A stretch of 62,375 bases of DNA, filler included, from Jimgerdemannia flammicorona (taxonomy: Eukaryota), in NCBI GenBank assembly GCA_003990765.1. It is 2 parts of 2 records of this genome, joined end to end, with 100 filler letters (N's around TTAATTAATTAA, not from the genome) between each part and the next. Parts side by side here need not be neighbours in the genome. Positions count along the whole stretch, not along the records: positions 1 to 31,143 come from RBNJ01000410.1; 1 more part is not named here. The stretch is one strand, 5' to 3'. A program made the position numbers and the translations under genes. Shown in pieces: positions 13,936-46,575 of the stretch (its first letter is position 1; every line of letters starts with the position of its first letter). The notes beneath the pieces were generated by a model, which was given only the letters and a program-made list of their open reading frames with translations, was not told the origin of the DNA and ran no database searches.

Positions 13936-14489
13936 CTCTTTGCCTGTAATATACCCAAATTTAAGTGTATAACTTTTTGATGTAAAAGGTCATCTATCTC
14001 GAACCCATAAGACATTTTTCAGACTCTATTAGTCGCTCTATGATGCTTTTCTTAGGGATTTCACTATTAATTGCATTGAGCTAGTGCCACACCTTTCTGT
14101 CCCATCACTTGCCAGATCACCAGATAGAACTTTATTCAGCGAATGTGTCTAAAATATTACGTATATATAAAATATTACCAAAACATTACACAATATGCCA
14201 ATCTAGCACTATTGCTGTCTAACTTGTCACTATTGCCATCTAACTCATCATTGCCATCGCCATCATCACCATTGCTATTTCACCATCATCGCCATCACCA
14301 TTTCACCATCATCGCTGTTGCCATTTCACCATCATCACCATTGCTATTACCATTTCACCATCATCGTCATTGCCATTTCGCCATCATCGCCATCACCATT
14401 GCTATCTAACTCATCATTGCTATCACCATTTCTAACTCACTCAAATGTTCTGAATAGGAGAAAAAAAAAAAAAGATTAATTATTTATCA

Positions 14490-16224
14490 AGATGCAGGTG
14501 ATGAATATTATAATCGAGATTCCACCATTCTGATCTCCTAAAAAGACTATACCTGCCATTCTAGATGTTCCTGCCATTCTAGGCATTCCTGCTGCTCCTG
14601 CCTTCTCCCACCTAATATATACAGCTCCTATTCTTGCAAGTTGTGTAGTCCTTCCCGAAGATCTGGATCCGACCAGTATTGGGATATTTCGTCTCTTCTT
14701 CCCTAATAATATACTGAAGAAGATTGTCATGAACACTAATTACTATGCTGAATTAAAAGATGCCGGAGTGAGGGGCAGAGAGTGGAAGTGGTTGATGGTA
14801 CCTGAGCTCTTAATCTTCATAGTGATTTGCATATACTTCGGGCTGTTCCGTGCTGGAAGAGATATTGAGTGGCATTGGAATAAGGATATCAGAATGCCAT
14901 CACATTGAATCCTTGAGCATATGACTCTACTTCGCTTCCAACAAATCAAACAATACTTATATATCTCTCTATCAGTTAACAACAATACATTGCATAACTA
15001 TTATACAAAGCTTGAACTGTTAATATTGCATATCTGAACAACATCACAAGCAATCTATCACCCAAGTTCCAATATGTCTTTTGATGAAATGATGATACGA
15101 TTCTCAGGAAGAAGTCTATATACCATTCATTTGAGAAGTAAACCAATTCCGGAAGGCTTTAAGATTCTCATGCTATGCAATTCTGGCTATATATGGTCAT
15201 TCCTCCCAACCTCTCATATTACACCCAACAGAGAGGTCAAGAAGATTAAAGGTCTCAGTCAAACCAGATGCATGGTCACACTTCTTGTTGAAGAATTGCC
15301 ATACAGGATTCAGGTATTTAACATATATATGGATAACTACTTCTCCTTCATTTCGTTATTCAAATATCTGTGATCAAAGGGAATCGGCACATGCAGGACA
15401 GTTAAACCAAATTTGAAGAGGTTTCCACAATAACTCAAGGTTGCAAAAAACTTATAGCCAGCTTGGAATACCAGGTCTAGCATCATAATTGACAACGATG
15501 TTCTGGCATTGCTATGGATGGATAATGGCAAAGTCACTATGTTAATAACAATCCATGAACTTGGACTTGGAGTTAAGTGGAACGTCATCTATAAATGATG
15601 TTGTCCAAGAATTACCAATAAGAATGCCAAACAAGTACCTAAAGCCTGGGGAAATAAACCAAAAAAAAAGCTTTTGATTCCAAAGATCATTGACAATTAC
15701 AATCATTATATAGGAGGGTTTGATATTGCTGATCAACGCCATTCATACTATAATATACAGATTATGGCCTATCATAATTGGATGTCGATATTCTTCTGGC
15801 TGTTAGACACCACCATCATTAACTCGTACTTGGTATATAAGTTAGTGACAGAGTCCAAGATGTGGCATGACGATTTCCAGCTTGACTTGGCTTGGGAACT
15901 CATAAGGCTAGTGAGCAATAAAGAAAATGAGCAAAAGACACGAAAACGTCAACATGAAGATATTCCGGAATATCACATAAGAAGTGTATTATAGAGAAAT
16001 CATATAGTTTGAATCCTGCCCAACATATCTCTGGTGACCATCTGCCGGAGTATCAAAAATACCATAAGGCATGTATCTGGTACCATTACCAAGTAAAGAT
16101 TGGCCAAATTGAAATAAATAAGTGGCACTCACCACAAAGCAATATTATCTGTTGATCGTGCAATGTGACACTCTGTATAAATAATCAGCATAGTTGTTTT
16201 ACAGAATATCATACAATGAGTTAA
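14490..16224 (+). pseudogene. piggyBac (DDE_Tnp_1_7/PGBD-like) transposase relic A
   Basis: IFRLFF...IVMNTNYYA, MTLLRFQQIK, SFDEMMIRFSGRS, KPIPEGFKI, YMDNYF, PKIIDNYNHYIGGFDIADQ, IFFWLLDTTIINSY and a degenerate C-terminal Cys-rich domain; in-frame stops. Confidence 0.9.
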
Positions 16225-16344
16225 TATATATTGGTATTATGAATAAAGCAAAAGCGATGACAATGCATAATCACCTCAGGCATATTCAGGTAGGAATAAC
16301 CATCAACATAAATACGAATAACTGTTCGGATATACACAAGATGA

Positions 16345-16630
16345 ATAACCATCCAGATATACATGAGGAGGAATAGCCATCTGGATATATGTAAGGAGGA
16401 ATAGCCATCCAGGTATACACAAGACAAATAACCATCCAGGTATATGTGAGGAGGAATAGCCATCTGAGTATACCCAAGGATATATGCAAGGAGGATAAAC
16501 TGTCTGAGTACACATGAGGAGATTAAACCATCTAGATACACATGAGGAGGTCAAACTATCTGGGTATATATGAGGAGGTCAAACCATCTGGGTATACATG
16601 AGGAGGATAAACCATCCGTATATGTGAATA
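16345..16630. repeat. ~29-bp degenerate tandem array (ccatctggatatatgtgaggaggaatag-like), about 10 units, inside element A
   Basis: Recurrent ccatc(c/t)(a/g)g...gaggagg units at roughly 29-bp spacing. Confidence 0.75.
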
Positions 16631-16639
16631 CATAAGGTA

Positions 16640-17615
16640 GAAGCAACACCTCCATCCGGCACTGCACTCCATCTGACACTGCACCTCTATCTGACATCGC
16701 ATTGCATGTCTGGTACCGCTTCTGGCAATGCTTCTGACACCACTCAGCCTTTGGGAGACTAATAATCATGGCTCTCATCCGAGTCATCACAATTCTGATT
16801 CGGTTGTTGGCGGCATTTGGTGTATAAATACTCTCAGGAGTAGTACAAGGCACAAATATAGATATAAGGGCATGGTCCTTTACAGGAACACTTATACAGT
16901 GAAAATTTAAAATCTCTGCCATGTTTGTTGTAGCACTGACATATTTGAAATGTGGTAGAAATGAGCCCTAAGCGAGATTTGGCATGAAGAGATATCGTCA
17001 ATTGTTCAAATTCAGATACTGCTGCTCTGGAAGATAACTGTGTTTCGGGAATGAAGGATGGTTCATCTATCTTCATCATGGGTCTCAATGTGACTGGAGT
17101 AGGTTGGCTTGGTATAGGTTGGCTTGGTGTAGGTTGGCTTGGCGTAGGTTGGCTTGGTGTAGGTTGGCTTGACATAGGTTGGTGTATTGGAATAGCTTGG
17201 GGTGTTGGAGTAGTTGGACATTGAAGGGTTGTTGAAGGTTCCCCAAGAGGTAAACTTAGAATAACAAATGGAAATGAGAACAGATCATTGCAGGGTATAT
17301 GGGGGGATCCACACTAGTGCATACCAGTGAGAAGGTGATCAAGAGATTGCAAGATCCCAGAGGCTGAATGAGATAGTTGGAGGGCCAAAGTCTAGAGGTT
17401 GGCAAGTTCATTAATGTTATTTTGTAAAGTGGTGCACTCAGCAAGGCTGCATATTTTGTGGTAGTCTGAAATGCTGTAAATGTCAGGGTAGTTATTCATG
17501 ATTGCAAGAGTAGAATTGAGGTCTTTGATTCTGCTGAAATGTGGACAGACATGGCAGTCATTAGTACAATGTAGGATATCACAAACTGGGCAGGAATTGT
17601 TGGAAGACATGCTAC
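16640..17615 (-). pseudogene. Cys-rich accessory/cargo gene relic of element A, convergent with the transposase
   Basis: MSSNNSCPVCDILHCTNDCHVC..., a PTPSQ-repeat linker (15-bp repeat at 17098-17180) and C-terminal CQCYNKH...YKCSCKGPC; a few in-frame stops. Confidence 0.5.
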
Positions 17616-17759
17616 AAAAAAAAAACAAAAAAAAAAAAAAATTAAGGCATTAAATCAATTGTCACAGTATTCCAGCAAATTCGCCACTTTCAGTATGAAA
17701 AGATGCCTCACACACATACAAAATGCATATATACGTAAATCTACAGAGTATGAGCCTGT

Positions 17760-17970
17760 TTGTTTGAGTGTGAGTGTGAGGCTGTTTATTTGAGCATGAG
17801 TGCATTTGAGCACATTTGAGCAAGTTTGAGTGCGTTTGACTGAGTTTGAGCACATTTGAGCACATTTGAGCATGAGTGCATTTGAGTAGCTGTTCATTTA
17901 AGTGGGAGTGAGTTTGAGTACGTTTGAGTGCATTTGAGTGAATTTGAGTGTGTTTGAGTATGAGTGTATT
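17760..17970. repeat. 10-bp degenerate minisatellite (tttgagcaca/tttgagtgca) in element A
   Basis: Repeated tttgag cores at about 10-bp period. Confidence 0.7.
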
Positions 17971-18092
17971 TGCTCGATTATAGGTGCGAGTGAAACAAGA
18001 GTATTGGAGCCCAAAGGATTTCAGGGGTATTTGATGATGATACATCAATTTCCTTATGTCATCAGGGGACGGAGATAGGAGATATCATCAGC

Positions 18093-18137
<45 letters not shown>

Positions 18138-18262
18138 AAGGAGACATCATCAGGGGATGGAGATAGGTGACGTCATCAAATTCTTGCATCATCTATCCAG
18201 ATATTACATTCAAAACATTATCCTCCAAATATGAGGGTATTATCATACAGATAAAGGGATAT

Positions 18263-18321
18263 ACTTATATAGATATTAAAGAATAGAAGATAAAAATTCT
18301 TATTAATATAAGAGTAGCTAT
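18263..18321 (+). mobile_element. Stranded fragment of the Gypsy relic 1 aspartic protease active site between elements A and B
   Basis: act tat ata gat att aaa gaa tag aag ata aaa att ctt att aat ata aga gta gct reads TYIDIKE*KIKILINIRVA and is restorable by transitions alone to ...KGQKIKVLIDTGAA. Confidence 0.65.
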
Positions 18322-18580
18322 TTCTTACCCTATAATCACATGTAGGCAAATTTATATAACGTTATCACATTTGTAGAATATATCAGCATTCCTAAACAAT
18401 GATAAGCTGATAAGCTTTTATATGATTCTTTAATCATTCACACACTCAAAGATCCCTATTCTAAGTTATAATCAGATATATTTTGACTATTTATCATGCT
18501 AGACTCTGGGAATTTTGTGCTTTGTGCTCCAATCTCACTCTTTAATGACTCATTCTTTATTAAATTCCTCTCCAACAATC

Positions 18581-20800
18581 TTAATTTTTCATTGTATGAT
18601 AATTAGCAAAACAGATACATTACTTATTGATATATAGTATAACATTATAAGACTGGTAGATAATATTACTTTGAGGTGGATTCTGCATATTAATTTCAAT
18701 GTAACCTATCTTCTCCAGATAATGACATCAATGCACACCTTGTATTTTTCTTGATATTTCGGAAAATAATCACCAGGGGTAAGTTGGGCAGGATCTAAGT
18801 TGTGAGATTTGATAATATAATACTTTCTTAGTAGTAGATCTGATATTATCATCAATTCTTCTCTTATATAATTGTATGTTTTTCTTTATATTTTGTTTCT
18901 GCTTTCTTTTTCATTTATAAGTTTTATAAGATTCCAAGCTAAATCAAGTCAAAATGTAATCTGAGTTATTGTCAGTCTGACTATCTGATGTACTAGGTAT
19001 GAATTGATGATTGTTGTATCTAACAACCAAAAGAAAAGTAGCATCCAAGTCTGTTTAGCTTTGATCTATATATTGTAATATCTATAACATTAGTTGGCAA
19101 TATCAACTCCTTCCATATGATGATTGTAATCATTAATAACTTTTGGAATCTCTGGTCTCTTTTATGCATTGTCTCCCTAGGTTTCTTAAACTTATGTGGC
19201 ATTATTGATGGTGGGTCTTAGATGATGCCAGTTGCATATAATCTTCCATTTGGCTCCAACAAGTTCATGAATAGTTATTAACATAGTGACCATACCATTA
19301 TCTACCCATAGCAATGCCAGAACATCATCAATGATTATACCTAAGGTTATATTCTAATCATATGTTACTTTTTTGCTAATCTTAAGTTGTTTTAGGAATT
19401 GTTTTGACCTCTGTCTAACTGTTCTATATACTCTGATTCCCTTTGATCATAGATATTTGAATAATGCAATGCTGGAGAAGTAATTGTCCATATAGACATT
19501 GAACATCTAAGTATCAAATGGCAACTGTTCAACAAGATAAATGATGATAGATGCTATTTTACTAAGCCCTTCAATTTCCTCAACTTCTCTATTACTAGTG
19601 AAGCACAAAGTTAGCAGAAATGTCTACATATAATCATAATTACATATCATATTAATATTGAAGCCTTGTTTGACTGGTTTACATATATATCAGTATATAT
19701 CCTTACTTTTCCCTAAAAATTATACCATCATCTCATTGACAGATATATTGGAACTTGAGTAATAGATGGATTGGAAAGTTTTTCAGATGTGAGAAAGTAG
19801 CAGTTCGAGTTTTGTATAATAGTCGCTATTGTGAATGCCATGTAGGGAGACATGAAGGTATCATTTGATTTGTTGGAATCGATAACAAGATATATATTCA
19901 AGTATTCTATGTATCAGTTTTTGAACATCATTATTCCAAAGCCACTCTAGATCCTTATCTGCATGGAAAATACCCAAGTATATGCAAATGGCAATGAAGA
20001 TGATGAGCTTTGATACTGTCAGATCTTTCTATGTTCTGTCAGTCTCTCTGGTATCCTTGACTGCAGCATAGTAATTCATATTAATAACAATGGTTTTTAG
20101 TATTTCATCAGAAAAGAAGAGACAGAAAACATCAATACCAGATAGGTTTTCACCAAGATTATTGGGAAGGACAGAGTGTCTTGAGAGAATAGATTTCATG
20201 TATTTGAGACATGTAAAGGCAGGAGTAACAGATAAGGTAGGAATGACAGATAAGGCAGGAGTGACAAGAGTAACAGATAAGATAGGAGCAATAAGTAGGG
20301 TGTGGTTTTTGCCCTGCTTATCATTGTCAACTTTGGTAATCAGCACTGTTAATAATTTATTTTTACTTCCCTTTGGCCTTCCTCTCTTTCGGTTGATGGT
20401 TTCGTTAATATTATATGTTGTCTGTTTTTTGCTGAAGAACTTGCTGATAGATTCATCAATATTATCAGAGTCAAACTACTTGCCATCAATTTTATTATCA
20501 GTATGTATCATCACTGTTAATAATTTGTTTTTTGCCCTCTTTGGTCTTCCTCTCTTTTGTTTTATACTTTCATTGACAATTTGCACCCCCTGTTTTCCCT
20601 TTCCTCTAATGAATTTGTCAAGGTCTTCGGCAAAGTCATTGTCAGCAAAGTCATTATTGGTGAAGTTGTCATTGGTGAAGTTATTATCATCGGTTTCAAA
20701 TTCAGAATCATTGTAGAAGATTTTGTGAGAATAAAATCTCACTATAGCTTTAGCTTTCTCTTGTTGAAATATGAGAATAATGAAGATTTTATGAAATGAG
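18581..20800 (-). pseudogene. piggyBac transposase relic B with N-terminal acidic region and two AT-hooks
   Basis: VFCLFFSDEILKTIVINMNYYA, SVNEMMV, VYMDNYFSSIALF, PKVINDYNHHMEGVDIA, LFFWLLDTTIINSYL and terminal CFANYH; KRGRPK twice near the N-terminus. Confidence 0.88.
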
Positions 20801-21542
20801 TAATTACTCTCTTTATTAGTTACTCTATTGTTTTCTTTATTTGGTAAATGTGGCTCATTTTTTCTTTATTAAAGGAAAAATTTATTTATTATACAAAGTG
20901 GGTGGTTGTTCTCTTTATTAGTTGCTCTATTTGTTTCTTTATTTGGTAATTTATGCTAATATATAGCTTATTTCTCCATTGTTAGAGGACAATGTGATCA
21001 GCAATAAGATGGGTGGGTTTTCTTATTCCTTTTATTTGATAATTATACTAATGGCACTCTATGGAAAAACAATATAACCAGCAATAAGATGGGTGGGTTT
21101 CCTTTATTTTGTGCCTTGCTCTATAAATGCTAAACTAACACTATAATCTCTGAATATTTTCCTAAGATTTCCCAAAGATTTCCAAATAATTTTCTGTGGA
21201 CATTATACACAGATTGCAAGCATGATAGTTGCAAGTATGATAATTGGTAAGATAATGTCTCACTAACTAAATATAGTTTGTTTACTTAGATTTTGTTTCC
21301 TGACTCAAAAGGTAGTCACCTGTGTAATGGGCATTGAGTATCCTATCAACCCCAATCAACCAATAGGCTAGATTGAGCTTATTAATCTTCTTTCCTTTGA
21401 GTAACTTTGATACTTCAGATTTTTTGATTCCTACATACCTCTCTTTACAATAACAGAAGATACATATCGATTTGGTGCTTAATACTTTCTAAAATATTTC
21501 ATTCTCCTCAATTTGCCTGTCTTATTAATAAATTACAGGATA

Positions 21543-23740
21543 ATGAGTAATGAATATACTTATCAGGAAGCTGACATCGCCCCCTATTTCACCACCATAT
21601 GCTGGTATGAGTGGAGCTATGTGAATTTTTTGAAGTCCATCTGGAGTACAAAGGGAATTGGTACCTGGGATAAGGCTTTATTATATCTCTCATTTAAGGA
21701 AAGTCTTTCTTGCATCTAAGCTACCAAACTACCATCTAACATTGTTAGCTAAATTGATTATCTTACTGATTTCCATCTTAAGGTATATTCTCTATAAGTA
21801 TATGATATTATTCAGAATATAATTATAACACAACTTATCTCTCTTCTAAGAATTCCTAGGAGGAGATTAAAGCATTCTGGAATTCAATCAAGTTTTCTGA
21901 GATATGTATCTCTTTATACTGTTTGCATTATAGATATAGCACAATTCAGAGAGGCTGACAGTTATATTGTTTTTGTGAACATAATCACTAGAGATGAGAG
22001 ACACCAAATCAGAATGATTACTTGATACTAAATGAGAATAATTATATGACACTGAATGAGAATAATTATATATTGGAAAATGGAGTCAATATTACAATAG
22101 TTCTGGGAAAAGATATCATAGTTGATCTTTCTAGTGAGAAGCTACATAAGAATGTCACAGCAGCAGATTGAGAGGAGATGTATAGTAATTTTGAGGATAC
22201 ATTAGAGGTATTGAGAGAGGAGATTCCTTTATACTATCAAAAAGCTGTCAGATTTCTCTGTAAAGGTATCATAAGTATGATCTTACTTTATTACATACTT
22301 GATTTGTTAGTTTTCCACTACTTTATATATTGAATACATTCTTTATTCTGTTTATCTTATTATAGAGAAATATTAAGGAAATACAATAGAACCTTTAGAG
22401 AGGTTTTGCAGTCATGCTTCAAGAAATCGATATAGATATTGAAGATAATGATGACCTAAATGACCTTTGTGGATTAGAGGGACTTCACATCACTGCCTAT
22501 AGTATGTAAGTTTGGTTTTTTCTCTCAGTCAGTTTATGAACTTGTGAGTTCACAGCTCTGTCTGTACCCCTGCCCCTTAACCAGAATTTGAGTCACATAC
22601 TTAGCTCTTAATTTTTTTTTTTACTATAGGTTCCATTCCTACTCAATGGGTTACACCATTTCCAATGATTTGTCTAAGGCAATATTAATTATTTGATTTT
22701 TCTCACCACTCTTTGAGAAAATCATGATGAGTCTATTTGATAAGTTATTATAAAAGTGATAAGATGTTCTCTAGTTCTCATTAGAAGAGGTTTGTGTATT
22801 GAATTTCTGCAGAGTATCAATCTAATATTTCACTCTGTTTATCCAATTTACAGGGAGGAAAGTACACTAATTACCTCTGCCTCAAGATGGAATAGTGAAA
22901 TTGAAAATGAGAGCCAGGTTCAAATAGAGTAGAGAATGGATATTATTGGATCTCTCTATATGAATCAGCTTGAGGTAATGCTCATAGAGTTCTCTTTACT
23001 GAGCAAGCAGCTTTATAAGAGCAAAGTATAGAGTGATAAGTCAAAAATTATGTAGGGTATGAAGAATGCCTTGGATAGAATTTTGCTGATTGCACTAAGA
23101 AGTTCTAATCACCAAGAGCTGTAATGAGTCTTTATTATTGGTGTTCAGATTATTAGTATGAGATATTTATTTATTATTTGGTTATTATTCAATTATTATG
23201 TATTCAGTCATTATTCAGTTATTAAGATTTGAATCTCAACCAACAGATCATAAAGTTATGGTCTATGTCATAAACATGGACCAGCTGAAGGACCTGTTCG
23301 CCGCCAAGGATTCCGTCAAATTCCCCGTTTTCGACCTCATTCTTTTGGGCATGGGCCCCGATGGACATACCTGCTCGCTCTTGCTTACAATAAGAGATAT
23401 AGGTTTCAGGATATTGATATATTCAATTTATCTCTAAATTGGCATGATATGAAATGTCAGTTTAAATCTGTATTATTAGGATTTTTATGGTTGAAGGTAA
23501 AGGCTTACTTTCATTACTTCTACTATCTATTACTTTTACTATCATTTTCTCCACTAATATTTCTGTTTCTATTTACAGGCATACTTAGATCATACACTCT
23601 GTTACTTAGAGGAACTTTGCAAACATTATGCAGGGTGATTGAAGTTAATGAGAAACAGCATTATTGAGTAGATGGTATATCACTCAGCACACTCAACAAC
23701 TCTAGGTCAGCCTCAACAAAACTCAGACAAAAGAGAATGA
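21543..23740 (+). pseudogene. Intron-containing cargo gene relic, PD-(D/E)XK restriction-endonuclease-fold (CRN C-terminal REase-like)
   Basis: MSNEYTYQEADIAPYF...; GESTLITSASRWNSE...RMDIIG...LEVMLIEFS...SDKSKIM*GMKNALDRI...IIGVQII|...VYVINMD...[11 protein letters not shown], a motif order I recognise from REase-fold families of early-diverging fungi; GT-AG introns, stops and frameshifts. Confidence 0.55.
23279..23382 (+). other. Captured fragment of a 6-phosphogluconolactonase (SOL/6PGL) gene
   Basis: [33 protein letters not shown] contains the 6PGL signature FDLILLGxGPDGHTxSL; GC-rich with intact CpGs, unlike its flanks. Confidence 0.85.
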
Positions 23741-23819
23741 CAGCTGATGTAATCAGAGTCTTCATCATCATCTTTGGGTAGAAAGAAGTTAAAGAAGTAG
23801 GATATATAGTAGGTTCTAG

Positions 23820-24120
23820 GTATGGGGGTTGTAATGCTGACATGTATAGGGGTTGTAGTGCTGACATGTATAGGGGGTTGTAATGCTGACATGCACAGGG
23901 GTTGTAATGCTGACATGTACAGGAGTTGTAATGCTAACATATGTGAGAGTTATAGTACTGATATATACTGGTACATAGGTACTATAATACTGATATATGC
24001 AGAGATTACAATATTAATATACACAGGGTTACAATACTGACATATATGGAGATTACAATGCTGATATACATGGGGGTTGCAATGCTGACATATGTGGGGA
24101 TTACAATTCTGATGAGCATG
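23820..24120. repeat. ~24-bp tandem repeat (ggggttgtaatgctgacatgtata-like), about 12 units
   Basis: Repeated gttgtaatgctgacat / gattacaatgctgata units. Confidence 0.8.
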
Positions 24121-24289
24121 GGTTGCCCTAAAAGACTTATGGTGGTTGGTATGTATGGTATATATAGGTATTTTATGTTTCTGTAGCTAATCTTTATAAA
24201 AAAAATCTCTTTGCTATATATTGGTTGTTATGTGATATAATTATATTGAGAATTGTACTTGCTCACCATTCCACCACTCTACCATTCAT

Positions 24290-24575
24290 CACTGCACTAT
24301 TCTACTCAACTGTCCACTACTCACTACTCTACTACTCAATACTCCACTGCTCAGTGCTCCACTGCTCAGTGCTCTACCACTCGATGCTCTACTGCTCAGC
24401 ACTCCACTACTCAGCACTCCACCACTCAGTGCTCTACTACTCAGTACTCTACCACTCAGTGCTCCACTGCTCAGTACTCCACTGCTCAGCACTCTACCAC
24501 TCAGTACTCTACTGCTCACCACCTCACTGCTCTACTGCTCCCTCTATTTACTGCTCCACTCTACTGCTCTACTGT
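24290..24575. repeat. 15-bp tandem repeat (ctc[ct]act[ag]ctcag[ct][ag]-like), about 17 units
   Basis: Regular 15-bp periodicity seen as STTQ/STAQ pentapeptides in the ORF track. Confidence 0.85.
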
Positions 24576-25146
24576 TTACTTTGAGCCAGACTCAGATAGA
24601 CAGATTTGGCCATTAATAGCTAGTCATATCATTATAGCCCAACTTAATGCCAAGGCTCTCTAAAGACCACAAAGACAGAGGGCCTCCCAAAGTCTTGAGC
24701 CTTAGTAGAGTGAACAATTGGTCTCCACCACCATGGCTGCTCTTGAGGTCTGGAGCAATGCTTTTTGAGTACTAAAGGTATGAGGAAAGGGAGGCTGAGA
24801 GAGGTTGCTGAGAATACTGCTGAGTTGTCAAGAATATTGCTACTATTGCTAATAGACCTCAAGGTGGTATACAGTAAAACAGATGGATCAGAATCAGTAT
24901 CATAAGCCATGGTCTGCTTTAGAAAGGAGCATGTTTTTTTGAGTCTCGAAGGTATGGAAGATAATAAACCTAAGCCACCCACCATATGCCCCACTATTGT
25001 CCACCAATTTCCATATAATTTCCAATTCTAAGATAAGTTAGATGGCAAGGCAAGTCTCAAGTGAGACCTTTCTATAAGTACTAATGAATTCTATCTGAAT
25101 TCCATCTAAATAATTTCCAAATAAGATAACTTAAGATAAGAGGGTT

Positions 25147-26003
25147 ATGAGTTTATTTTATTGGCATTATATGTATCATATTAAAAGCTCTCTGTCATCA
25201 TCACTCTCTATCTATTTCCACTCTCTGTCACCACTTTCCTTTGCCTGTCTATTCTCACTCTCTATTGCCACTTTCTTTCATCTCTCAGCAGACTCTGTTA
25301 CTACCTACTGCTTGTATCACTCATCACTGCTTTTCTTGCTAGTACACTGTTTCTTGTCACCACTCATACTGCTGCTTATCACCATCCCTACCTTAGTGCT
25401 TCTTATTGCTGCTCTGCTACTTGTCACTGTACTGCTCTTTATTGTCACTCTGGTAATTATTATCACCTGTCAGTAAGTAATCTTTGTCCTCCTCTCTACA
25501 TATTATTTAACTTGTGATGAGTTTTTATTTATTTCCTCCTATTTCTCTAATATTCCTCAGTATCAAAGTCAGGACCCAATCATACTTCATATAGTAATTG
25601 CTATAAAAAGCACTGACAATGTCTAAGTTCATGGGAATTTTGTCAAGTTACCCACCCTGATGTCCAGGACATATTGTCAATGAGGAAATACAATTCAACA
25701 TTGAGAAAAGCAAGGTTGGATACAAAGAAAGGAATCAAGCAATAAGTAAAGTAGTGCCAAATTGCTATAATTTCACAAAATGACATAATATATTTCATCA
25801 TCAATGATTGACAATGGGTTAAGTGCAGACAAGAAGAGATGGTCATTCTTAATGAAGAGGGTGAGCAGATTGTCCATTTTGATCAAGTCTCTGCAGAGAG
25901 ACTACAGTATCATGTAAAAGAATTCAGTAGTAAAGCCGAGTGGGACAAAGAGAAAGAGGTAGATTAGCTTGATAGTGAAGAAGAGGTCAATCAGCTTAAG
26001 TGA
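25147..26003 (+). pseudogene. Additional unidentified cargo gene relic in element B
   Basis: Low-complexity first part, gtaagt...cag intron (~25473-25560), then a long frame KH*QCLSSWEFCQVTHPDVQDIL...EEEVNQLK* broken only by TGA/TAA/TAG transition-type stops. Confidence 0.4.
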
Positions 26004-26335
26004 TATGTCTTCTATATATCCATTTGTGTCATTTTTTGGGTAACAACCTCTGGATTTCTTTCTAACTCCATCCACATTACCAATAAAATAGCTGCTTTTA
26101 CTGCTTCTAGCATAGAGAGTAGTAGGCATATTTGCCTATATATTTATATATATAGTCCATGCTTATATAATATTATAAAGTATAGATTGCCATATTGCTC
26201 ACCAAACTTTCACTTATATTGAGGTTAAGTATATATGTGTGTATATCTTATAGATATATATATAGTATAGAGTGAGATATATTACACCAAATGTTTTTGC
26301 AGGCAAATTTGCCTACACTATGGGGTAAGAGATAT

Positions 26336-27750
26336 ATATTATTGTTAAAAAGTTTCTAAATATACTATAGTAGCTTATTGATGAATTATTTAGTCTCAAT
26401 ATCATAGTAGCAAATAGTATCTGAACTTAATCTCTAAGAGAAGTTAGAAATATTACTATTATTCTAGGATATATTTAGTTCTCTATATCTAAGACTATTA
26501 TAACTAAAGTTATTATTTATAATATAATCTTTAATACTAACTAAATGAATAAAATGAATATAATTATAGATATTGATCAATAGATACTCAAATCTAACTA
26601 TAGAGAGAAAAAGTATTATATTAAAGTAACTAACTTTGAGTAATCTAAGAAGAAAAAAAAATCACTATTATAATAGTGATCTTAGAATAATGATATTATC
26701 ATAGAAGATAGTCTTTTCTTACAAGCTACTAGATTAGAATACAAGAAGATTATATAGTATAACTCACCCAGGCTATAAGATGAGTAATAATGATAAACCA
26801 TAAGTCATAATAACTATAAGATAGACATCTCAAGAAATATAAAAGAAGGATCAAGAAACTACAGTAATAGCAACTCAAACAAGACTCACCAAATCCCAAA
26901 ATAGTTTAAAAGACTTACTATAAATAAAATATCTACCACTCACTAAATCTCAAGGTCTAGAAACTACTAAGACTTCTCAGTCTAAGAAAGGATATTCCAA
27001 GACATCAGGAGAGCTATGAGAACCTGTACCAGAAGGATTCCTAGCCTCAATTTGGGTATCAGTAACTCTTATTACTTTATCCTCTACTGCTATGAAATAG
27101 AGACAAGGATCACTACTACTACTGAATACCTCTAGATATAGTAAAAATACAAAATAGAAAACCTCTTCTACTGGGAATTCCCTCAGACTAGTCTCTAAAA
27201 GATACAAGATATTACTCTTATAGATGTATACAAATTAAAAGTATTCAAAAAGATCTATCAGGCCTTCAGATATATACCTTGGTTAATCCCAAACTTGGAG
27301 TATATCAGAGTCTCAGACTTCAAGAAATTATCAGCTCACTATATAGATATATTGGAAACCATGATGGCTATAGAAGCCTAATCCACTATTATTCTCAAAA
27401 GTAATAAAGTAGAAGAGTTCTAGAATCCCATCCTTAAGGATAATCCAGATCAATTCTTGCAAGGATTAATCTCAGTATTCCAAGACTCCAGTATCTAGAT
27501 CAGACTCTCTCAAGATCTCACCTTTGTCTCCTACTTTATAGAGGAAAATATCATAGATTGGAGAGTCTCTGATCTTCTTCTTACTATTATTAAATATAAT
27601 GATGTCACTGATAATAATATTATCCCACTAATTGATACACATAAATGAACAAAACAGAAATATTCACTGACCTCATTTCCTTCAAAGACATTCTGTTCCT
27701 AACCTCTAGTTTTGATGACAGTGATGAAGATAAAGCCTTAAGATTTTGAA
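26336..27750 (+). mobile_element. Continuation of Gypsy relic 1 (protease C-terminal half and downstream frame)
   Basis: IIVKKFLN...NIIVANSI*T*SLREVRNITI...; heavily mutated; no RT motifs seen. Confidence 0.55.
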
Positions 27751-28099
27751 TATTCTACTCTAATTTATTTATATAACCATTTATTTGAATACTTGAATGT
27801 TCTGGCATTCTGACTTTATATAACTATCAGAAATTATTTCAGCATTCTGATCTTATACAATCAATTATATGAGCACTTGAATTTATACTTATAATCTAAA
27901 GTTTTCTAGGTTTAAATATCTTATTTAGTTATTGAATTTTATATTTAGCTTTATATCTTAGTAACTATTGAATTACATTCTGTATAAATATCCCTCTCAT
28001 TTCTTTTGAAATAAAGTCAGTATTAAAACACAAGTATTCAAGTACTCAACTACTCAAGAGTACAAAAGTTTTAGTTCTCTACTCAATTCCATACAAGTA

Positions 28100-30546
28100 A
28101 TCTAAGAGACAATAGAACAGTTTAAGATAAAAAGTTTAAGGACTATAAGATCTTGAAAAGGCACTCCAATAGAACTTACTTATAAGAAACTTATAGTAGT
28201 CTAAGAGATATACTTTGAAGAGAATCTGACATACTTGGAGAACTTAGCACTTACTATATGACAACTTGGTGTCTATTGGCTAGTAATACCATTAGAATCT
28301 CTCACTTTCAAGCTAAATAATAAATAACTACTACAACAACTATTCTAACTATAAGAGTCACCTCTTACAAGAATTTAAGACAAGATAGAAATGCATCCCC
28401 TCACATTCTATAGATTTATTACTGAAGAGTTTATCCTAACCTTTATTAAAGACTTTGAACAATTTGCCATTATATAAGCTCTTACTGTGAAAGCACAATT
28501 GGTTCTTTTATTTATCAGTCTCAGAGAATCTACTAAAGATAAGTTCAATACAGCCACTATTGCTAATAATAGTATAGCCAAATTCACCAATATGAAAAAC
28601 TTTCTCAGAACTATATACTATATTGAAGAGATTAAGCAAACTCTCAAAGATCAACTCAATACTATCTGCCAAGGACTCAATGAAGACCCCAACTCATTCT
28701 ACATCTAAATCTGTCATCAGATTGTCTTGGCTAGCTATAATAATATCTTTAAGGAATAGATAGCTGATTAAATCTTTCTAAAAGGAGTCTATCATGAAAT
28801 TGTCCTAGCAATCTAATCTATCTCAGCTACTCTAACTCTTGATCAGAAAGTGGTCTTTGTACAGAGATATTAGACTATCAGATACCCTACTGAATACTTA
28901 ATGGAAAGGATAACTGGTATCAAGATGGAGCCACCAAAGCCAACCAGTATCATACTTACTACAGCTCTCAACAGACAACTATCCCTATCTACCCTCAAGA
29001 TAGCCAAAGCTGACCCAGTAGAGGAACTCACCCAGTAGTTTGCCAAAATGACTGCACATCTTAGTAATGTTGTTAGAGAAGTATAAAGTGCCAACAGAAG
29101 ACTAGTACAGAGGTTTGCAGCTATTATAGAGAAATACACTATTATATGCTTCAAATGTGGAGAAGAAGACCATTATGCAAAAAATTGTATAACTGAAATA
29201 AGGTACAAAGCCCAACCAAGTAATACTACTAGAATCTGAGAACAAATCAATACTGTAGTCATCAAGGAGATTGATAATACTGATGATGAAGAATACTATG
29301 AGGAGTTCGAATTCTACCCTATTATTGAAAGTACCAGAACTCAGTCCAAGCTCTATGATAAGAAGAGTAATAGTAAGCTAGTTGGAAGACCAAAAAAGAC
29401 TACAACTATTACCATTCAAAGTAAGACCCAATCTGAGGAGATTGATCAAAATATAGAATTATATAAAACTGTCTACCAAATCATTGAGGATACTATTTCA
29501 GTCTCAGGAGAAAGTAAAAGTAAGAAAGAACAGAAGCTATATAAGACTAAGATCTATCAGTATGATATCTTCAAGGATCTCAAAAAACAGAAGATCAATA
29601 TTACTTTTGGACAACTAGCTGAAGTCTCTGTCTTCAGATAGCAGTTGAGAGCAGGACTTGCAACTACTATTAAGAACTAAGAGTATAAGATCATAGAAGC
29701 TCACAATAAACAAGAAGATGAACAAGAAGACTCAGGCAAAGAATCTGAAGATTAGTGCAAGACCTCAGCCTATACCTAATGTCAAATTGAAGATTATATC
29801 TTTGATATTATCATTGATATTGATACTGGAGGATGTCTCATAAGTAAGAAGGCAATTGACTGCCTAGACTGGAATATTGAAGAATCTATCAAAATAGTTT
29901 ATATAACAGTAGATGAGAAATAAGTTACCCTCTTAGACAAGATCTGAAAAGTCTCTATCAAGATCAGAAGAGCTACTATCCTAGTAAATATAATTGTTAT
30001 GAGTACTACCAACTATGATATCCTCATTGATAATCAATAACTTTATAAGACTAAGACTATCATTGATCTCAATGCCCAGAAGATACAAATCAACTATAGA
30101 GAAAGAAAGATATGAGTCTCTATCAATATCTATAAAGGAGTACTACCAGATATAGAGAAAGGAGATAAAGAGGATATAGAAGTTTTCATACACTCAATAT
30201 ATAAGAATAAGAGCAAGACAACTAAGTTCACAGATGAGCAGTGGTACAACAAGATTATTGATAGCTATGCCTCTCAAGAAAGATACCCTCATGGTGCTAG
30301 AATATACTACTCCAAACATCTAAATAACTACTAGTTTTGTACTAGTAAAGTTAGAAAAATTTGTCAATAAATATATAAGTAAGAAGCAGCTGAAGCAAAA
30401 AAGAAAGCTGAAGAAGATGACTAGCCCCCAGAGCTTTAAGCTAATAGTGATGATGAGGAGAAATAAGAACTAGATATTACTCTCAAGATTAAGAAGTTTT
30501 ACTCTGAAGCTAAGATTCCAGAATACAAGACTAAAGAAGCTATAGA
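28100..30546 (+). mobile_element. Ty3/Gypsy-like relic 2: gag, CCHC knuckle, protease and start of a dUTPase
   Basis: Gag QGLNEDPNSFY...FLKG; knuckle CFKCGEEDHYAKNC (~29148-29189); protease IIIDIDTGGCLISKK (~29805-29850); LKIKKFYSEAKIPEYKTKEA (30482-30541) resembles a dUTPase N-terminus. Confidence 0.7.
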
Positions 30547-31143: not shown

Positions 31144-31243
31144 NNNNNNNNNNNNNNNNNNNNNNNNNNNNNNNNNNNNNNNNNNNNTTAATTAATTAAN
31201 NNNNNNNNNNNNNNNNNNNNNNNNNNNNNNNNNNNNNNNNNNN
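31144..31243. other. Artificial scaffold gap (N44-TTAATTAATTAA-N44)
   Basis: Exactly 100 bp; the central 12-mer is a six-frame-stop linker. Confidence 0.95.
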
Positions 31244-33243
31244 CTCCTCCTATCCCCCTCCAGATCCCAGCGCCGCTCAGCCTCCAACTCGTCCTCCATC
31301 ACCTCCTGCGCATCCAGTGCCTCCAAGATTTCCTGGCACTCTGCTCCATCAACTACTTCGAATTCGGTCCGATACTCCCTGCACACTACTCCCCACTTCT
31401 CCAACCCTTTCTTTGAGTTCCACAGATAAGCTGCTCGATCATTTACAATCACTCGAAGTTCCTCCTCCTGCTGATCATCGACTTGATACTCCACCGACTC
31501 CAGGAGCACTGCCAGGATTTCGTTCCAGACCTTCCCTGGCACCTCCTCACCATGCAGAATTTCCTCCCAGTGCCTATCACTCATGACCCGGAAGTCCTCA
31601 CCTCCCAGCTCCTCAGCTGCCACCCCTTCCAGAGTCTTCCACAGCCACTTCTCCTCCTCCACCACTGCCTCGGCACTCTGGGCACTCCCTTCCCCCTCAA
31701 CCACCGGGTCCACCAATGCGATCCTCCTTCCCAACTCATCCCACTCCTCCTCCAGGACATCAAGAAGCTCCTCCTCACCTCCGACACCTCCTGGGACCCC
31801 ATACTGTGGCTGTACTTCTACGCTCATCTCAGCGTCCTCCACCATGCTGCCCTGCCCTCCTTCCCCACGGACCTCTTGGGCCACCCTTTGATCCACTCTG
31901 GGCTCCCCAGCCCAGTCACTTCCCTTCAATCCTACTCCACTTCCCCCCTCTCCACCTTCCACCGTGCCTCCTCCCAATTTCTCCAGCAGCTCCTTCTGAA
32001 TATGCCTCCCCTGCATCTTCTCCCAAGTTCCTCGATCCATCCTGACCTTCTTCTCTTCTACAATTTCCACCACCGTCTTGGCCTCATACTCCTTCCAAGC
32101 CAATTGTCTCCTCTTGACAGCTCCCATCAGATCCTCCAGAGCCTCCAGCAAATCCTCCTCTTCCTCCAGCGTCCCTTTCACCCAAGAGACCCTGCACTCA
32201 ACTGGTCCCCACTTCAGCATCGCCGGCCAGTCCCTCGCCTTTCCCGTGTTCTCCCGACCAAACAAGCATACTCTTACATCAACGTCTCCAGTCCTAAGTT
32301 CCGTACCCTCCCAGACTTTGAACCTGATATCGATAACATCCCCATACTCCTTGACCACCTCTACAATCAACTCCCTAGCCCTCTCCCGCAACACTGTGGG
32401 AAGATCCAGCACCATCAACTGCACCACTCTCGGGTCCCAGCGCATGCACCTCACCATAGGAACTACCACTCCACCCACTACTACCCCTTTCTCCATAGCC
32501 TCCAGCATCGACACCTCTTCTTCAAACCCAACCTCAATCCCTTCCTTCCCCTTCATGAACTTGACCATAGCTGCCCCCTTCACCTCCTGCGCCACCAGCC
32601 CCAGAATCATCCTCGCAGTCACTGCCAAGCCTCAGAAACACAACGTGACCGCGAATTCTGACCTCGACTTTTTGAGTAACGGTGCCGACACCATGCCTGT
32701 CACTCCATCAGCCAGGTCCCCGGGCCTCATGCCCTCCTTCTGTCCCAATCCGCCAACCACCATCACATCTGGATTTTTTTTCAGATTCCCCGTTACAGCC
32801 CCATCAGCAGTCACATCTCCAACCCCTACTCCCCCTCCCCCCATATGGACTGAGGCTCCTATGGGGGATCCTCCCTGCCCTCCTTCTGAACCTGGCATCG
32901 CCTTCCCCAGACCCAACCAACCATCCAGCCCTGTGGTCATATTCCCCATTCTGACCTTATCGGCAAAGGTCGCCCTCCCCCCACCTCTCTGCCGCAGTCC
33001 ACCTCTCCCGCCACCTCCAGCACCACCGCCCACCACAGATGGCCCTGGCATCCCCAAACCATCTCCTCGTTTCCTCCCAACCTGCTGCCAGTCGAAGGCA
33101 CGGCTGCCCCCCTGGCTGACCTGCCCACCAGTTTGCTCATTGCTCACCATGTTGATAGTAGCTTTTCACCAAAAACTTCGCAGAAAGTGTTGTCCAAATT
33201 TTGTGTCACCTGAATGTTACCGGTGAAAGCCTTGAATCAAAAT
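31244..33243 (-). mobile_element. Non-LTR retrotransposon (L1/Tx1-like) 5' end and ORF1 with one in-frame stop
   Basis: ORFs 33150-32632 and 32628-31244 share a frame, separated by a single TGA; ATFADKV motif; RRM-like IEVGFEEE...GVVVGG...LMVLDLP...EYGDVIDI...RTGDVDV...RVSWVKG; abuts the Gypsy pol. Confidence 0.7.
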
Positions 33244-36235
33244 CATCTCTGCCATCTAAATAAAAAGACTCTCTTGAAAAAAAGGAAATACTTACTTCAT
33301 CTATACTATACAAGAAGTCACTAAAGCTCTGAGTAGCCCAATCCCAACAGAAGCTCAAGAACTATTTGAGGAATTCCAGAATATATTCCAAAACCCTCAA
33401 GGACTTCCACCTAAGTGCCAAATCCAACATAGAATTGATCTCATTCCAGGGTCTGAACCTCCATACAAGAGTATCTACCAACTAGCCCAATCTGAACTCA
33501 AGACTCTTAAGGATGAGCTGCTTAAACTACTGGCCCAAGGATATATTGAACCCAGCTGCTCTCCATTTGGAGCCCCTATTCTATTTATCAAGAAGAAGAA
33601 TAGCTCTCTGTGAATATATATTGACTATAGAGCCCTCAATAAGATTACTATTAAGAACTAGTATGCCCTATCTAGGATTGATGAGTTATTGTACCAAATC
33701 TTCAAGGTCAAGATCTTTTCCCTATTAGACTTGTGAAATGGCTACCACCAGATTCTCATTGATGAGAAGGACTTTGAAAAGACAGCTTTCTGAATGCAGT
33801 TTAGATACTACTAGTTCTGAGTCATGCCTTTTGATTTGACCAATACACTAGCAATATTCCAGTATCTGATGAATGATATCTTTAGACTACTCCTCAATAT
33901 TTATGTTCTTGTGTATATTGATGATATACTAATCTACAGTGAAACAGTAGAGTTATACTATATCTACCTCAGACAGATACTGACTCTTCTGTGAGAACAC
34001 TAGCTCTATACTAAGATGAGCAAGTGCAAGTTCTATCAAGAACAGATTGAGTACCTAGGACATATCATCTCTACTGAAGGTATCAATATAGACTCCCAAA
34101 AGGTATCAGCTCTTAAGAATATTCCCATCCCACTATCCTCAAGCTACTCCAGTACTTCTTGGGTATTACTAGTTACTACTGAAGGTTTATCTAAGAATAC
34201 TCTACTATTGCAGCCCCATTGACCAGCCTGGCCCATAAAGGAGTAAATATTAAGACTGAATAGATCCCTAAATATACCAAGACTATGGACTATCTCAAGA
34301 GACTTCTTAGTGAGGCCCTAGAGCTAATTGTACCTGACCCTATTAGACTATTTACTCTGACCACAGATGCTTCTGATATTGCCATTGGGGTAGTACTTAG
34401 CCAAGAAGATTGCTCAGTAGTCTACTTTTCCCAAAAGCTCAAGCTAGCTGAGACCCAGTATACTATCTATAAGAAGGAACTCTTGGCCATTGTCACTGTA
34501 CTCTAGGAATGACACCATTTCCTCCTAGAACAACTATTTGTGGCCTATACTGATCACTATGCTCTATAGTACATTTATATATAGCCTATGCTGACCTACA
34601 GATAAGTCTGCTGGATGGAAATCATTATCAACTTTGATATAAAAATCAAGTATATCTCAGGCAAAACCAACTGTATGACTGATGGTTTCTCCAGATATAT
34701 AAAAGATGAACTTGTCTTCATGATTAAGATAATTGGAGACCTTACTCAAATAATCAAGAATGGCTACTAGCAGGATAGCTCTCTGATAAAATTCCTTCAA
34801 GTCTATCAAAACCCAGAGGCCGAAGTCCTAGAACCTATGAGATAAATGTCCAAGAGATTTACTTACCATAATAGACTTATCTACAGAGACTATAACAGAG
34901 TAGTTGTATCCAACAATAATACTCTGCAGCTCAAAATCATACAGAAACTTTATGATACTCCTGCAGCAGGATACTTTGGTTTTGAAAAGACCTACAATCT
35001 TCTCTCAAGAGAGTTCTACTGACCAAAGATGACCAAGAACATCAAAGACTTTATGGCCTCATATAAGATGTGTCAAAGGTTCAAGAGTAGTAACAAGCTA
35101 TCAATAGAACTTCTACAACTCCTACCTATTCCAAGTCATAACTGGGATTAGATTGTAATGGACTTTATTATTCAGCTCTCCAAGACTAAAGTAGGATGAG
35201 ATGCCATTGTGGTATTTGTAGACCACCTAAGCAAATAAGCCCATTTTGTACTGACTAAGACCACCATAACAGTATCAGAGATTGCTGAGATTTTCCTCAA
35301 CCAAGTATTCAAACTATATAGTATGTCTAGTACCATTGTGTCTGACTGGGATACTAAGTTTACAAATAACTTCTGGAAGACATTCTTCTCTCTCCATAGA
35401 ATCAAGCTGAAGTTCTCTACTGCTTACCACCCCCAGACTGATAGTCAAGCTAAGTGAACCAATATGTAGGACTCTCAAGCAGATGCTCAGCATCTTCTAC
35501 TATTATAAGTAGAATGATTGAGACAAGTATCTTGCCCATGTCAAGTTTGCCTATAACAACAGCCAGCAAACCTCTATAAAGAAGGCTCCATTCTTTCTGA
35601 ATTATGGCCAACATCTAAGAACTCCAAGTATTACTACAAAATCAACAGTTCCAGTAGCCCAAGATTTGGCTGAGACCATTTCTGATCTTATCCAAATAAT
35701 AAGAGATGTACTCATAGAAGCACAGGACTATCAGACCAAGTATACAAACTTGAAGTATAGAGAAGTCTCTTACAATATTGGTAACATGATTATGCTTAGA
35801 ACAGACCACCTCTACCCAGACATCCTGATACAACAACTAGCTAAGAAACTCTATGTTAGAAGAATTAGACTATATAAGATTGTGGAAAAAATCAGTAAAG
35901 TCAACTACAAGTTACAACTTTCTCATAATATTTAAGTACATCCAGTATTCCATATTAGTCAATTGGTAGACTACTATGAGAATCCTTTCCCCGAGTATAC
36001 AGTTCCACCACCACCCCCAATTAGAATTAAGAAATTCAAAATTGAGGAAATACTTGACTATAAGGTCTGCAAACATCCCAAAATAGTCAAGTAGTTTTTC
36101 CTTATTAAGTAGAAGAGTTACTCCACCCATAATACTATCTGAGAAAAGAAAGAAGCTCTAGAGAATATATGCAAAGCCCTCCAGAAATATATAAAAACAC
36201 TCACTCTTCAGCAAAGAAAAGAACTGCTGCTCTAA
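33244..36235 (+). mobile_element. Chromovirus-type Ty3/Gypsy pol relic (RT, RNase H, integrase, chromodomain)
   Basis: [104 protein letters not shown] and chromodomain FKIEEILDY...; many stops. Confidence 0.92.
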
Positions 36236-45847: not shown

Positions 45848-46575
45848 GGTTAATCTAGTGACGTGCGAGTATTTATGCACCGCGCACATGCATGAAACCG
45901 CCCTACTGCTCTTTGTTATTGGGCGTTTGGGACGGCATGGTGGCTGGGCCTCCGGTGGTCGCAGGTTGTTTCTGCGCCAAAACCAACAACATGCAAGTTT
46001 CCGGTCCGACACGTAAATCTGAGATGCACCAAGGAGATGTCTTTGCATGCACAGGGGGGTGGGTAGGTGTGGGTGGGTGTGGGCGATCGGGCCGGGAATG
46101 CAAGGTGGGGTTTGAGGTGAGTGTGGGTTTCTGGCCGGGAGGGGAGACAAAGGAATCGGTAATGTCTGTAACGTGGCGTTTGAGATTTGGTTTGTGGAGT
46201 CGAGGTGGTCTACAAGCGAATTTGCTCTCATGTAAAGGTTACTCTCTTTTGAAATAAAGTAACTCTCATTTTCAGATCTCCTGGAATGTCAGCCTCATCC
46301 TTGAGGTCTAGCTTGTCGATTTATAAGTATATACAGTTCGTAACCTGTTGTGTCATCCTATGCAGAAGCAGATATGATGTATACATCTCTCATGCATTCT
46401 TGGGCAGACCAAGGTTATTACGAACTGAAATGATCGAGCCCCTTTCGGCTTCTTTCGTAGCAACAATGGGACGATGACAAAAAAGAGCCCAGCTTTAAAC
46501 AGGTGACGGCTGACATTGTAACAAACAGAGTGAGAGATAAGGGGGGCGGAGGGTGGAGAGGGATAATCCAACGAA

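Follow-up and report, generated by a model that had tools for sequence, protein, structure and literature searches.

Positions 18322-26331 of a 62,375-nucleotide stretch of DNA from the fungus Jimgerdemannia flammicorona (GenBank assembly GCA_003990765.1; hereafter, the window) are occupied by element A, a decayed transposon of the piggyBac superfamily that spans 8,010 bp and, as oriented by its transposase, lies on the minus strand. Between its 5' end and its transposase pseudogene, A contains a broken multi-intron gene for a protein of the restriction endonuclease (REase) fold, together with further sequence. We favor the reading, at a probability of about 0.6, that A moved as one 8-kb unit with the nuclease gene as a passenger. 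The initial annotation had proposed a single 8-kb piggyBac-type insertion holding a PD-(D/E)XK-fold gene, which the present analysis supports. It had overlooked two features: a 104-bp piece of a 6-phosphogluconolactonase (6PGL) gene inside the nuclease gene, and the differing cargo of a sister element, B.

Ends, target site and transposase of element A

Element A is defined by its terminal inverted repeats (TIRs), a transposase matching PF13843, and the reading frame of the host gene that it interrupts. The imperfect 3' TIR (18322-18353, plus strand) is 5 nt longer than its partner, the 5' TIR (26305-26331, minus strand), and the ~30-nt pair aligns with one 5-nt gap and three mismatches. The local alignment score of 32 compares with a maximum of 26 in 880 control windows. 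In a gapped, transition-tolerant inverted-repeat scan of 18250-26400, the terminal pair ranks first among ~540 sliding 45-nt windows, and no distant internal pair across A scores as high. The lower-ranked pairs are mostly local palindromes; the distant ones score at most 40 and lie in AT-rich or low-complexity sequence. The termini proposed initially are thus upheld. A begins with TTCTT at one end and CTCTT at the other, and B with CTCTT and CCCTT. The motif C[C/A/T][C/A/T]T is found at the start of piggyBac TIRs (PMC5381638, PMC2872659), and A's ends fit CCCTT under C-to-T decay.

The insertion lies within the protease gene of a Ty3/Gypsy element, as had been proposed. A plus-strand protease piece with the catalytic motif (18259-18321, the motif falling in 18260-18321) ends at A's left boundary, and the frame resumes at 26332 and continues to 26600. 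Upon removal of A and two bases, the protease frame becomes continuous, with the catalytic motif spaced as in the window's second Gypsy protease. The BLOSUM score of the restored protease is 72-75 with two bases removed versus 53 with 0, 3 or 4. Comparison of duplication lengths from 0 to 8 shows that AT alone is both an exact repeat and in frame. A decay-aware score modestly favors 2 bp (29.3 versus 24.1); 8 bp scores 27.9, but its repeat is inexact. Because removal of A and one AT restores the frame, we assign A's target as AT or ATAT rather than TTAA. The left copy of AT is at 18320-18321 on the plus strand, where the 4-mer is CTAT, not ATAT or TTAA; the right copy, at 26332-26333 on the same strand, is followed by more AT units, and its 4-mer is ATAT. 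With these flanks, a TTAA target was rejected. The sequence is compatible with either a 2-bp AT duplication, which is inseparable from insertion between A and T, or an ATAT target minus one AT unit on the left, a unit that could have been lost by slippage. By its transposase and TIRs, A belongs to the piggyBac superfamily, but it departs from it in not using TTAA.

The transposase pseudogene (18589-20865, minus strand), whose true start could be upstream of the limit given, has its PF13843 core at ~18997-20133. It matches this profile at E 3.2e-42 over positions 4-349 of 349, and only two matches were obtained in the PDB, piggyBat (9c0f, E 9e-17) and the T. ni transposase (6x67, E 5e-6). These matches bear out the piggyBac transposase relic that had been proposed on this strand. 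The frame contains 16 stops in 613 codons, keeps two of the three catalytic Asp positions, with the first substituted, and has AT-hook-like RGRP repeats near its N-terminus. Between the transposase frame and the start of the nuclease gene, at 20786-21100, are direct repeat pairs of 85 nt at 102-nt spacing, with AGCAATAAGATGGGTGGGTTT occurring twice. They may represent either N-terminal coding sequence that has been repeated or a promoter that is shared.

Sister element B (13936-18258, plus strand, 4,323 bp) is inserted 63 bp to the left of A in the same Gypsy protease gene, the piece at 18259-18321 separating the two. It lies in the opposite orientation and is younger, with ATAT on both flanks. 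Its transposase is 65-67% identical to that of A at the DNA level and less decayed, and its 5' end, at 13936, is homologous to A's across ~56 nt. A frame test does not distinguish AT from ATAT as B's duplication; all three upstream frames score within the null (8.8-13.6; null mean 11.8, maximum 19.8, n=90). Behind B's transposase lies ~2 kb of extra sequence, which has no tblastx or blastn similarity to A's cargo and includes no nuclease; shared cargo between the two elements was rejected on these searches. An element with homologous ends and transposase that is devoid of A's cargo argues against a cargo fixed in the lineage. Within B, 16220-17620 contains minus-strand frames, 15-bp and 28-bp repeats, and a Cys-rich stretch. 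None of these frames has a credible family match; the Pentapeptide match of one stems from the 15-bp repeat.

The restriction-endonuclease-fold gene

The nuclease gene (21543-23800, plus strand) is divergent from the transposase and consists of eight exons, at ~21543-21782, 21848-21892, 22028-22264, 22366-22501, 22630-22756, 22854-23155, 23247-23496 (split by the 104-bp insert) and 23579-23800, with 16 stops in the 472 codons counted. Exon-by-exon alignment shows the exons to be colinear with residues 35-508 of P0002 and 37-302 of P0001, two annotated proteins of J. flammicorona that are the closest named homologs of the cargo gene. The GT of the intron 5 donor is lost at the homologous place. 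The divergent spliced gene described in the initial annotation is therefore real, but it ends at ~23800 rather than 23740, and one of its exons is split at 23276-23379. With the core exon as query, one of 75 candidates, P0001, was recovered (E 7e-29, 66% identity); with P0001 as query, 43 representatives were found at E <= 0.001.

The fold assignment comes from the AlphaFold model of P0001, which has a predicted local distance difference test score (pLDDT) of 82 and a predicted template modeling score (pTM) of 0.76. Over residues 32-235, the model matches BpuSI (Z 13.1, root-mean-square deviation (rmsd) 3.2, 156 residues aligned) and DrdV (Z 12.0, rmsd 2.9, 140 aligned), and further matches are TT1808 (Z 9.7) and HsdR (Z 9.5); the top 20 structural matches are mostly REase-fold proteins. 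This predicted structure supports the earlier proposal of a PD-(D/E)XK fold for the divergent gene, whose product would be a putative nuclease. Seven acidic or Lys positions are near-invariant among the relatives, in P0001 numbering E51 (29/29), E80 (32/35), D106 (39/40), E117 (40/43), E122 (42/43), D138 (43/43) and K141 (39/43). The family motif reads E-x-S/A, and the Lys sits on the following helix. The window copy keeps six of the seven positions, one invariant Glu being replaced. Relatives occur widely in Glomeromycota and Mucoromycota and vary in their N-termini, and the structural-atlas neighbors are Mucoromycota clusters of 57-127 members.

The gene had also been linked to Crinkler (CRN) effectors, a label that we do not retain. 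A Pfam search of the 43 relatives gave no match to any family, Crinkler included, and the Crinkler header features LxLFLAK/LxLWKV and HVLxxP (PMC6131194) are absent from all 50 proteins searched, the window's exon 1 included; on these counts, CRN membership was set aside as unsupported. No hydrophobic leader is evident in the exon 1 translation. Zhang et al. 2016 also define an alternative, alpha-helical CR header. The N-terminus of P0002 is predicted to be helical at low confidence (pLDDT <50 over most of residues 1-170), and its best atlas comparison, 0.89, is to unnamed Mucoromycota clusters. In one atlas neighbor cluster of the nuclease, 17% of the members bear Crinkler at a TM score of 0.51, which fits a shared REase domain type rather than CRN membership.

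Evidence on copy number consists of this window and one metagenome contig, a 1,884-bp locus (L001) that was the only one obtained from 244 pattern matches. L001 derives from another genome, is CpG-intact (observed/expected ratio (o/e) 0.80), and is 67% identical to the window in the core exon at the DNA level. The two genes have at least four intron positions in common. Among pattern matches in viral contigs, none was confirmed in three sets (0/10, 0/135 and 0/10). In prokaryote genomes, two of 88 passed weakly with short matches (E 7e-5 and 3e-4), and we regard both as chance matches. In the window, the nuclease gene is directly followed at 23820-24113 by 24-bp tandem arrays with the core GCTGACATG, which could be coding or noncoding. 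A repeat of the same type directly follows the nuclease stop of L001 and scores 64, versus a maximum of 46 in 680 control windows. The shared intron positions and repeat in L001 show that the gene and its downstream repeat form an old conserved module. L001 contains at 1683-1884 repeats of ~22 bp with the core CTGACATGCGCGGG that match the window's 24-bp array. Such repeats might serve an element as subterminal binding sites, or they might be a conserved 3' minisatellite. Their units are not all in one frame, which favors a noncoding repeat.

The 104-bp, CpG-intact insert (23276-23379, plus strand) splits and frameshifts the seventh nuclease exon, and the sequence flanking it on either side is that of the nuclease, as comparison with P0001 and L001 shows. 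It encodes the central motif of 6PGL: the match to PF01182 has an E value of 8e-10, and all ten PDB matches are 6PGL/DevB proteins. Of the element's 22 CpGs, seven lie in the insert and 15 in the remaining 7.9 kb (GC-adjusted p 6e-6). Neither a target duplication nor poly-A is found at its junctions, and the donor 6PGL gene is absent from the window. The insert most likely represents a templated insertion during double-strand break repair. It may have been made after the element had decayed, or it may have been spared because no other copy pairs with it. The fragment thus offers a possible test of whether C-to-T decay needs homology between copies.

Passenger cargo and its alternatives

Whether the cargo traveled with the transposase can be assessed from decay. 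Stop codons number 25 in 721 codons in the cargo and 16 in 613 in the transposase (p 0.43). CpG is depleted in both, to 6 in the cargo (expected 160) and 9 in the transposase (expected 63), with the cargo the more depleted (p 0.017). Substitutions between A and B are polarized, 178 against 111 (p 1e-4); the corresponding comparison with L001, 44 against 28, is not significant (p 0.076). Decay is as advanced in the cargo as in the transposase, and the cargo lacks internal termini, so it probably moved with the element. Transposition as one unit is the simplest account, given the absence of internal termini and the clean empty site, and the nuclease gene is called a passenger mainly because B has related ends and no nuclease.

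We propose the following sequence of events. A piggyBac of an Endogonales-type fungus would have transposed in one 8-kb piece into a Gypsy element whose decay had already begun, using an AT-rich target in which AT was duplicated, or ATAT with one unit lost later. Its cargo, situated between the 5' end and the transposase, would have comprised the multi-intron REase-fold gene and further sequence. A DDD transposase acting on the TIRs would have done the moving, while the nuclease gene, a member of a large Mucoromycota REase family, would have hitch-hiked as a passenger that is dispensable for transposition. The copy would then have been silenced and killed by C-to-T/G-to-A decay. The 104-bp piece of a host 6PGL gene would have entered the nuclease exon later, most likely by a templated insertion when a double-strand break was repaired.

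Several points weigh against this account. The pairing of nuclease and piggyBac is seen in one copy, so it cannot be called a family, and L001 ends before any transposase or terminus could appear; the odds that other copies carry the same cargo are about even. The cargo's greater CpG depletion could mean a separate, older history, and the inverted-repeat scan is blind to an old nested element with decayed ends. The 5-nt gap in the TIR and the mismatch between CTAT and ATAT indicate that the left end has been altered, and the contiguity of the element is that of the assembly. The fold is predicted for the homolog P0001, 66% identical in the core exon, rather than for the broken gene of the window, and a Foldseek search with P0001 gave no match at E <= 0.001, although its top matches were of the REase kind too, the best being a REase-domain protein at 7e-3.

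In a possible but doubtful alternative, the nuclease gene, the repeats and the third frame are an independent mobile unit, either one that encodes an REase or some other element that is decayed or has no TIRs, and this unit landed in the 5' region of an ordinary 2.5-3 kb piggyBac. Such nesting would suit a 27-kb island that is itself a stack of nested insertions, the unequal CpG depletion of A's two halves, the module of nuclease gene and downstream repeat conserved in L001, and its absence from B; moreover, the review of Zhang et al. 2016, as related in PMC5289972, connects REase-type CR proteins with transposons. A later insert should, however, be equally or less decayed, which the cargo is not. 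No internal TIR pair stands out. A split would be marked by a second piece homologous to B's 5' region, beyond the ~56 nt at the end, and A has none upstream of its transposase. A further possibility is that fungal piggyBacs include a lineage that gave up TTAA in favor of a 2-bp AT duplication and stably encodes a spliced REase-fold protein, either a second nuclease like TnsA of Tn7 or a selfish toxin. We consider such a lineage unlikely. If it exists, it would be the kind of AT-using transposase that AT-inserting MITEs (miniature inverted-repeat transposable elements) such as ATons lack, and the CpG-intact host fragment within the exon of the nuclease gene would be the trace of a break that was repaired.

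The two functions that the nuclease might serve fare worse. It is very unlikely that the protein assists transposition by processing the second strand or intermediates, in the manner of TnsA alongside TnsB in Tn7 or as has been proposed for the accessory nucleases of KolobokE/D (precedents in PMC9587614 and PMC3627910), although this could account for the short AT duplication. The head-to-head arrangement within 680 bp of the transposase frame, the conserved catalytic-type residues and the non-TTAA target would fit such a role, but B, whose ends are related, uses an AT/ATAT target and has no such nuclease gene, and the relatives are widespread, with varied N-termini. Known piggyBac transposases also work alone. 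We give very little weight to a selfish toxin or driver that harms nuclei or spores lacking the element, Spok-like or addiction-like, and so aids its spread. A proposal that CR proteins owe their toxicity to REase domains is given in PMC5289972, and Spok drive genes occur in a giant fungal transposon (PMC8092012); searches of the nuclease proteins examined gave neither an antidote or kinase domain nor a secretion signal or Crinkler header. A chimera, with ends from different copies that recombination or misassembly brought together, or with the 6PGL piece as a misjoin, is highly improbable. The island is rich in repeats, and the N run at 31144-31243, which the analysis took as a scaffold gap, has the position of the filler between the stretch's two joined records; no N lies within A, the host protease frame and motif spacing are exactly restored across the ends, and the nuclease exon is intact on either side of the 104-bp insert. 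One-unit movement with a passenger nuclease gene thus remains our preferred reading.

Remaining cargo, setting and relation to known systems

Downstream of the nuclease gene and its 24-bp arrays lie a 15-bp tandem array (24302-24532) and a possible decayed minus-strand frame of 103 codons with four stops (24602-24910), which has no family match in Pfam. The initial annotation had placed a repeat-rich minus-strand ORF at ~23740-25000. This was not confirmed, and an established minus-strand gene was rejected; the region consists of the two arrays and the 103-codon frame, and the repeat units of L001 fall in different frames. In the 15-bp array, the three plus frames have 0, 1 and 0 stops and the three minus frames 19, 16 and 4, so the minus strand is not established. 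The plus-strand frame also noted there, at 25147-26003, does look like a gene, possibly one of two exons and decayed, but it has no homolog in Pfam, the PDB or the protein collection (0/12 candidates, of lengths 96-307 only). Its first part is of low complexity, and its second (25563-26000) is charged, with five stops in 146 codons.

The window is fungal nuclear DNA. In the island at ~12.7-39 kb, GC is 0.24-0.40 and CpG is nearly gone, whereas the intron-rich host genes on either side have a GC of 0.50-0.52 and a CpG o/e of ~1.0. CpG density rises from 0 in the host Gypsy (1.2 and 1.4 kb) to 2.7/kb in A and 12.7/kb in B, and decay accordingly ranks Gypsy > A > B. Across 12700-39000, Gypsy DNA has lost CpG and part of its CpA (CpA o/e 0.77-0.84, CpT o/e 1.5-1.6), and the piggyBacs have lost mainly CpG (CpA o/e 1.2-1.4). 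Additional Ty3/Gypsy sequence, also decayed, lies on the plus strand at 27500-30500 and 33300-36000; these pieces include a gag zinc knuckle and protease, as well as reverse transcriptase, RNase H, integrase and SH3 domains. Beside the N run, GC-rich and less decayed minus-strand frames of 479 and 177 aa (31192-33226) have no match in Pfam and give the impression of an ORF1-type gene of a long interspersed nuclear element (LINE) inserted in the Gypsy island. A host gene at 44291-46288 has a 665-codon open frame with WFQNARRRR near its C-terminus, which we take to be homeodomain-like.

The claim of an undescribed system overstates the case, since piggyBacs of up to 8,451 bp (PMC5381638), a piggyBac with a DEDDh nuclease (PMC3627910) and KolobokE with a PD-D/ExK nuclease (PMC9587614) have been published. 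Piggybac has been reported from Mucoromycota (PMC5751038). Among 157 piggyBac-like elements, lengths range from 1,721 to 8,451 bp with a mean of 2,813, and ATAT is a rare, single-copy site (PMC5381638). A resembles piggyBac-like elements such as T. ni IFP2 and piggyBat in its DDE_Tnp_1_7 transposase, in its C-rich TIR starts of the C(C/T)CTT type, and in a size within their range. It differs in using AT/ATAT rather than TTAA, in its 8.0 kb versus a mean of 2.8 kb, and in its multi-intron REase-fold gene. Repbase appears to include an ATAT-targeting piggyBac group, which no paper found in our literature search names. ATons of Aedes aegypti, whose transposase is unknown, insert at AT (PMC3422177). 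They are TIR elements for which, as for A, a 2-bp duplication is indistinguishable from insertion between A and T, but they are nonautonomous mosquito MITEs, compared here by target only, and A may be an ATAT element with a lost unit.

A is a cut-and-paste element of the DDD/E type that has a nuclease gene in addition; in this it resembles KolobokE, KolobokD, KolobokP and the DEDDh piggyBacs, and KolobokE shares the PD-D/ExK nuclease; a few piggyBacs have a KolX-like protein (PMC9587614). These elements differ from A in transposase superfamily (Kolobok) or in nuclease class (DEDDh), and both lineages are multicopy families, whereas A is known from one copy. The nuclease of KolobokE resembles lambda exonuclease and is located downstream of the transposase domain, whereas that of A is a separate, divergent, spliced gene with a predicted fold closest to type IIG/type I REase domains. 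The C-terminal REase fold, variable N-terminal region and expansion in Mucoromycota/Glomeromycota recall CR/CRN REase proteins (PMC5289972, PMC6131194), from which A's nuclease differs in having no LxLFLAK/LxLWKV, HVLxxP, Pfam Crinkler, NTPase or kinase domain. In fish, a Crinkler-like gene has been amplified by neighboring hAT and mariner elements (PMC12957317).

Our literature search found no fungal piggyBac with REase cargo, though Repbase Reports, subscription journals or Zhang et al. 2016 and its supplements might record one; the excerpts of PMC13465315 contain nothing on such a pairing. The effect of the present finding is modest, as it concerns one dead copy with a putative nuclease gene. 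If the preferred reading holds, it would document a non-TTAA piggyBac target and provide a concrete vehicle for amplifying the large unnamed REase-fold family of Mucoromycota. The host fragment in the dead nuclease gene would serve as a small natural probe of break repair and transposon mutation in these fungi. Other cut-and-paste elements also carry extra protein genes, among them Teratorn, a piggyBac-herpesvirus fusion of 41-182 kb in fish with a piggyBac-like transposase (PMC6431247), and the TET-bearing fungal DNA transposons, whose cargo enzyme is another one and whose excerpted description makes no mention of piggyBac (PMC12730594). A operates in the same way as other cut-and-paste elements that have accessory enzyme genes, and it would add piggyBac to the fungal members of that group.

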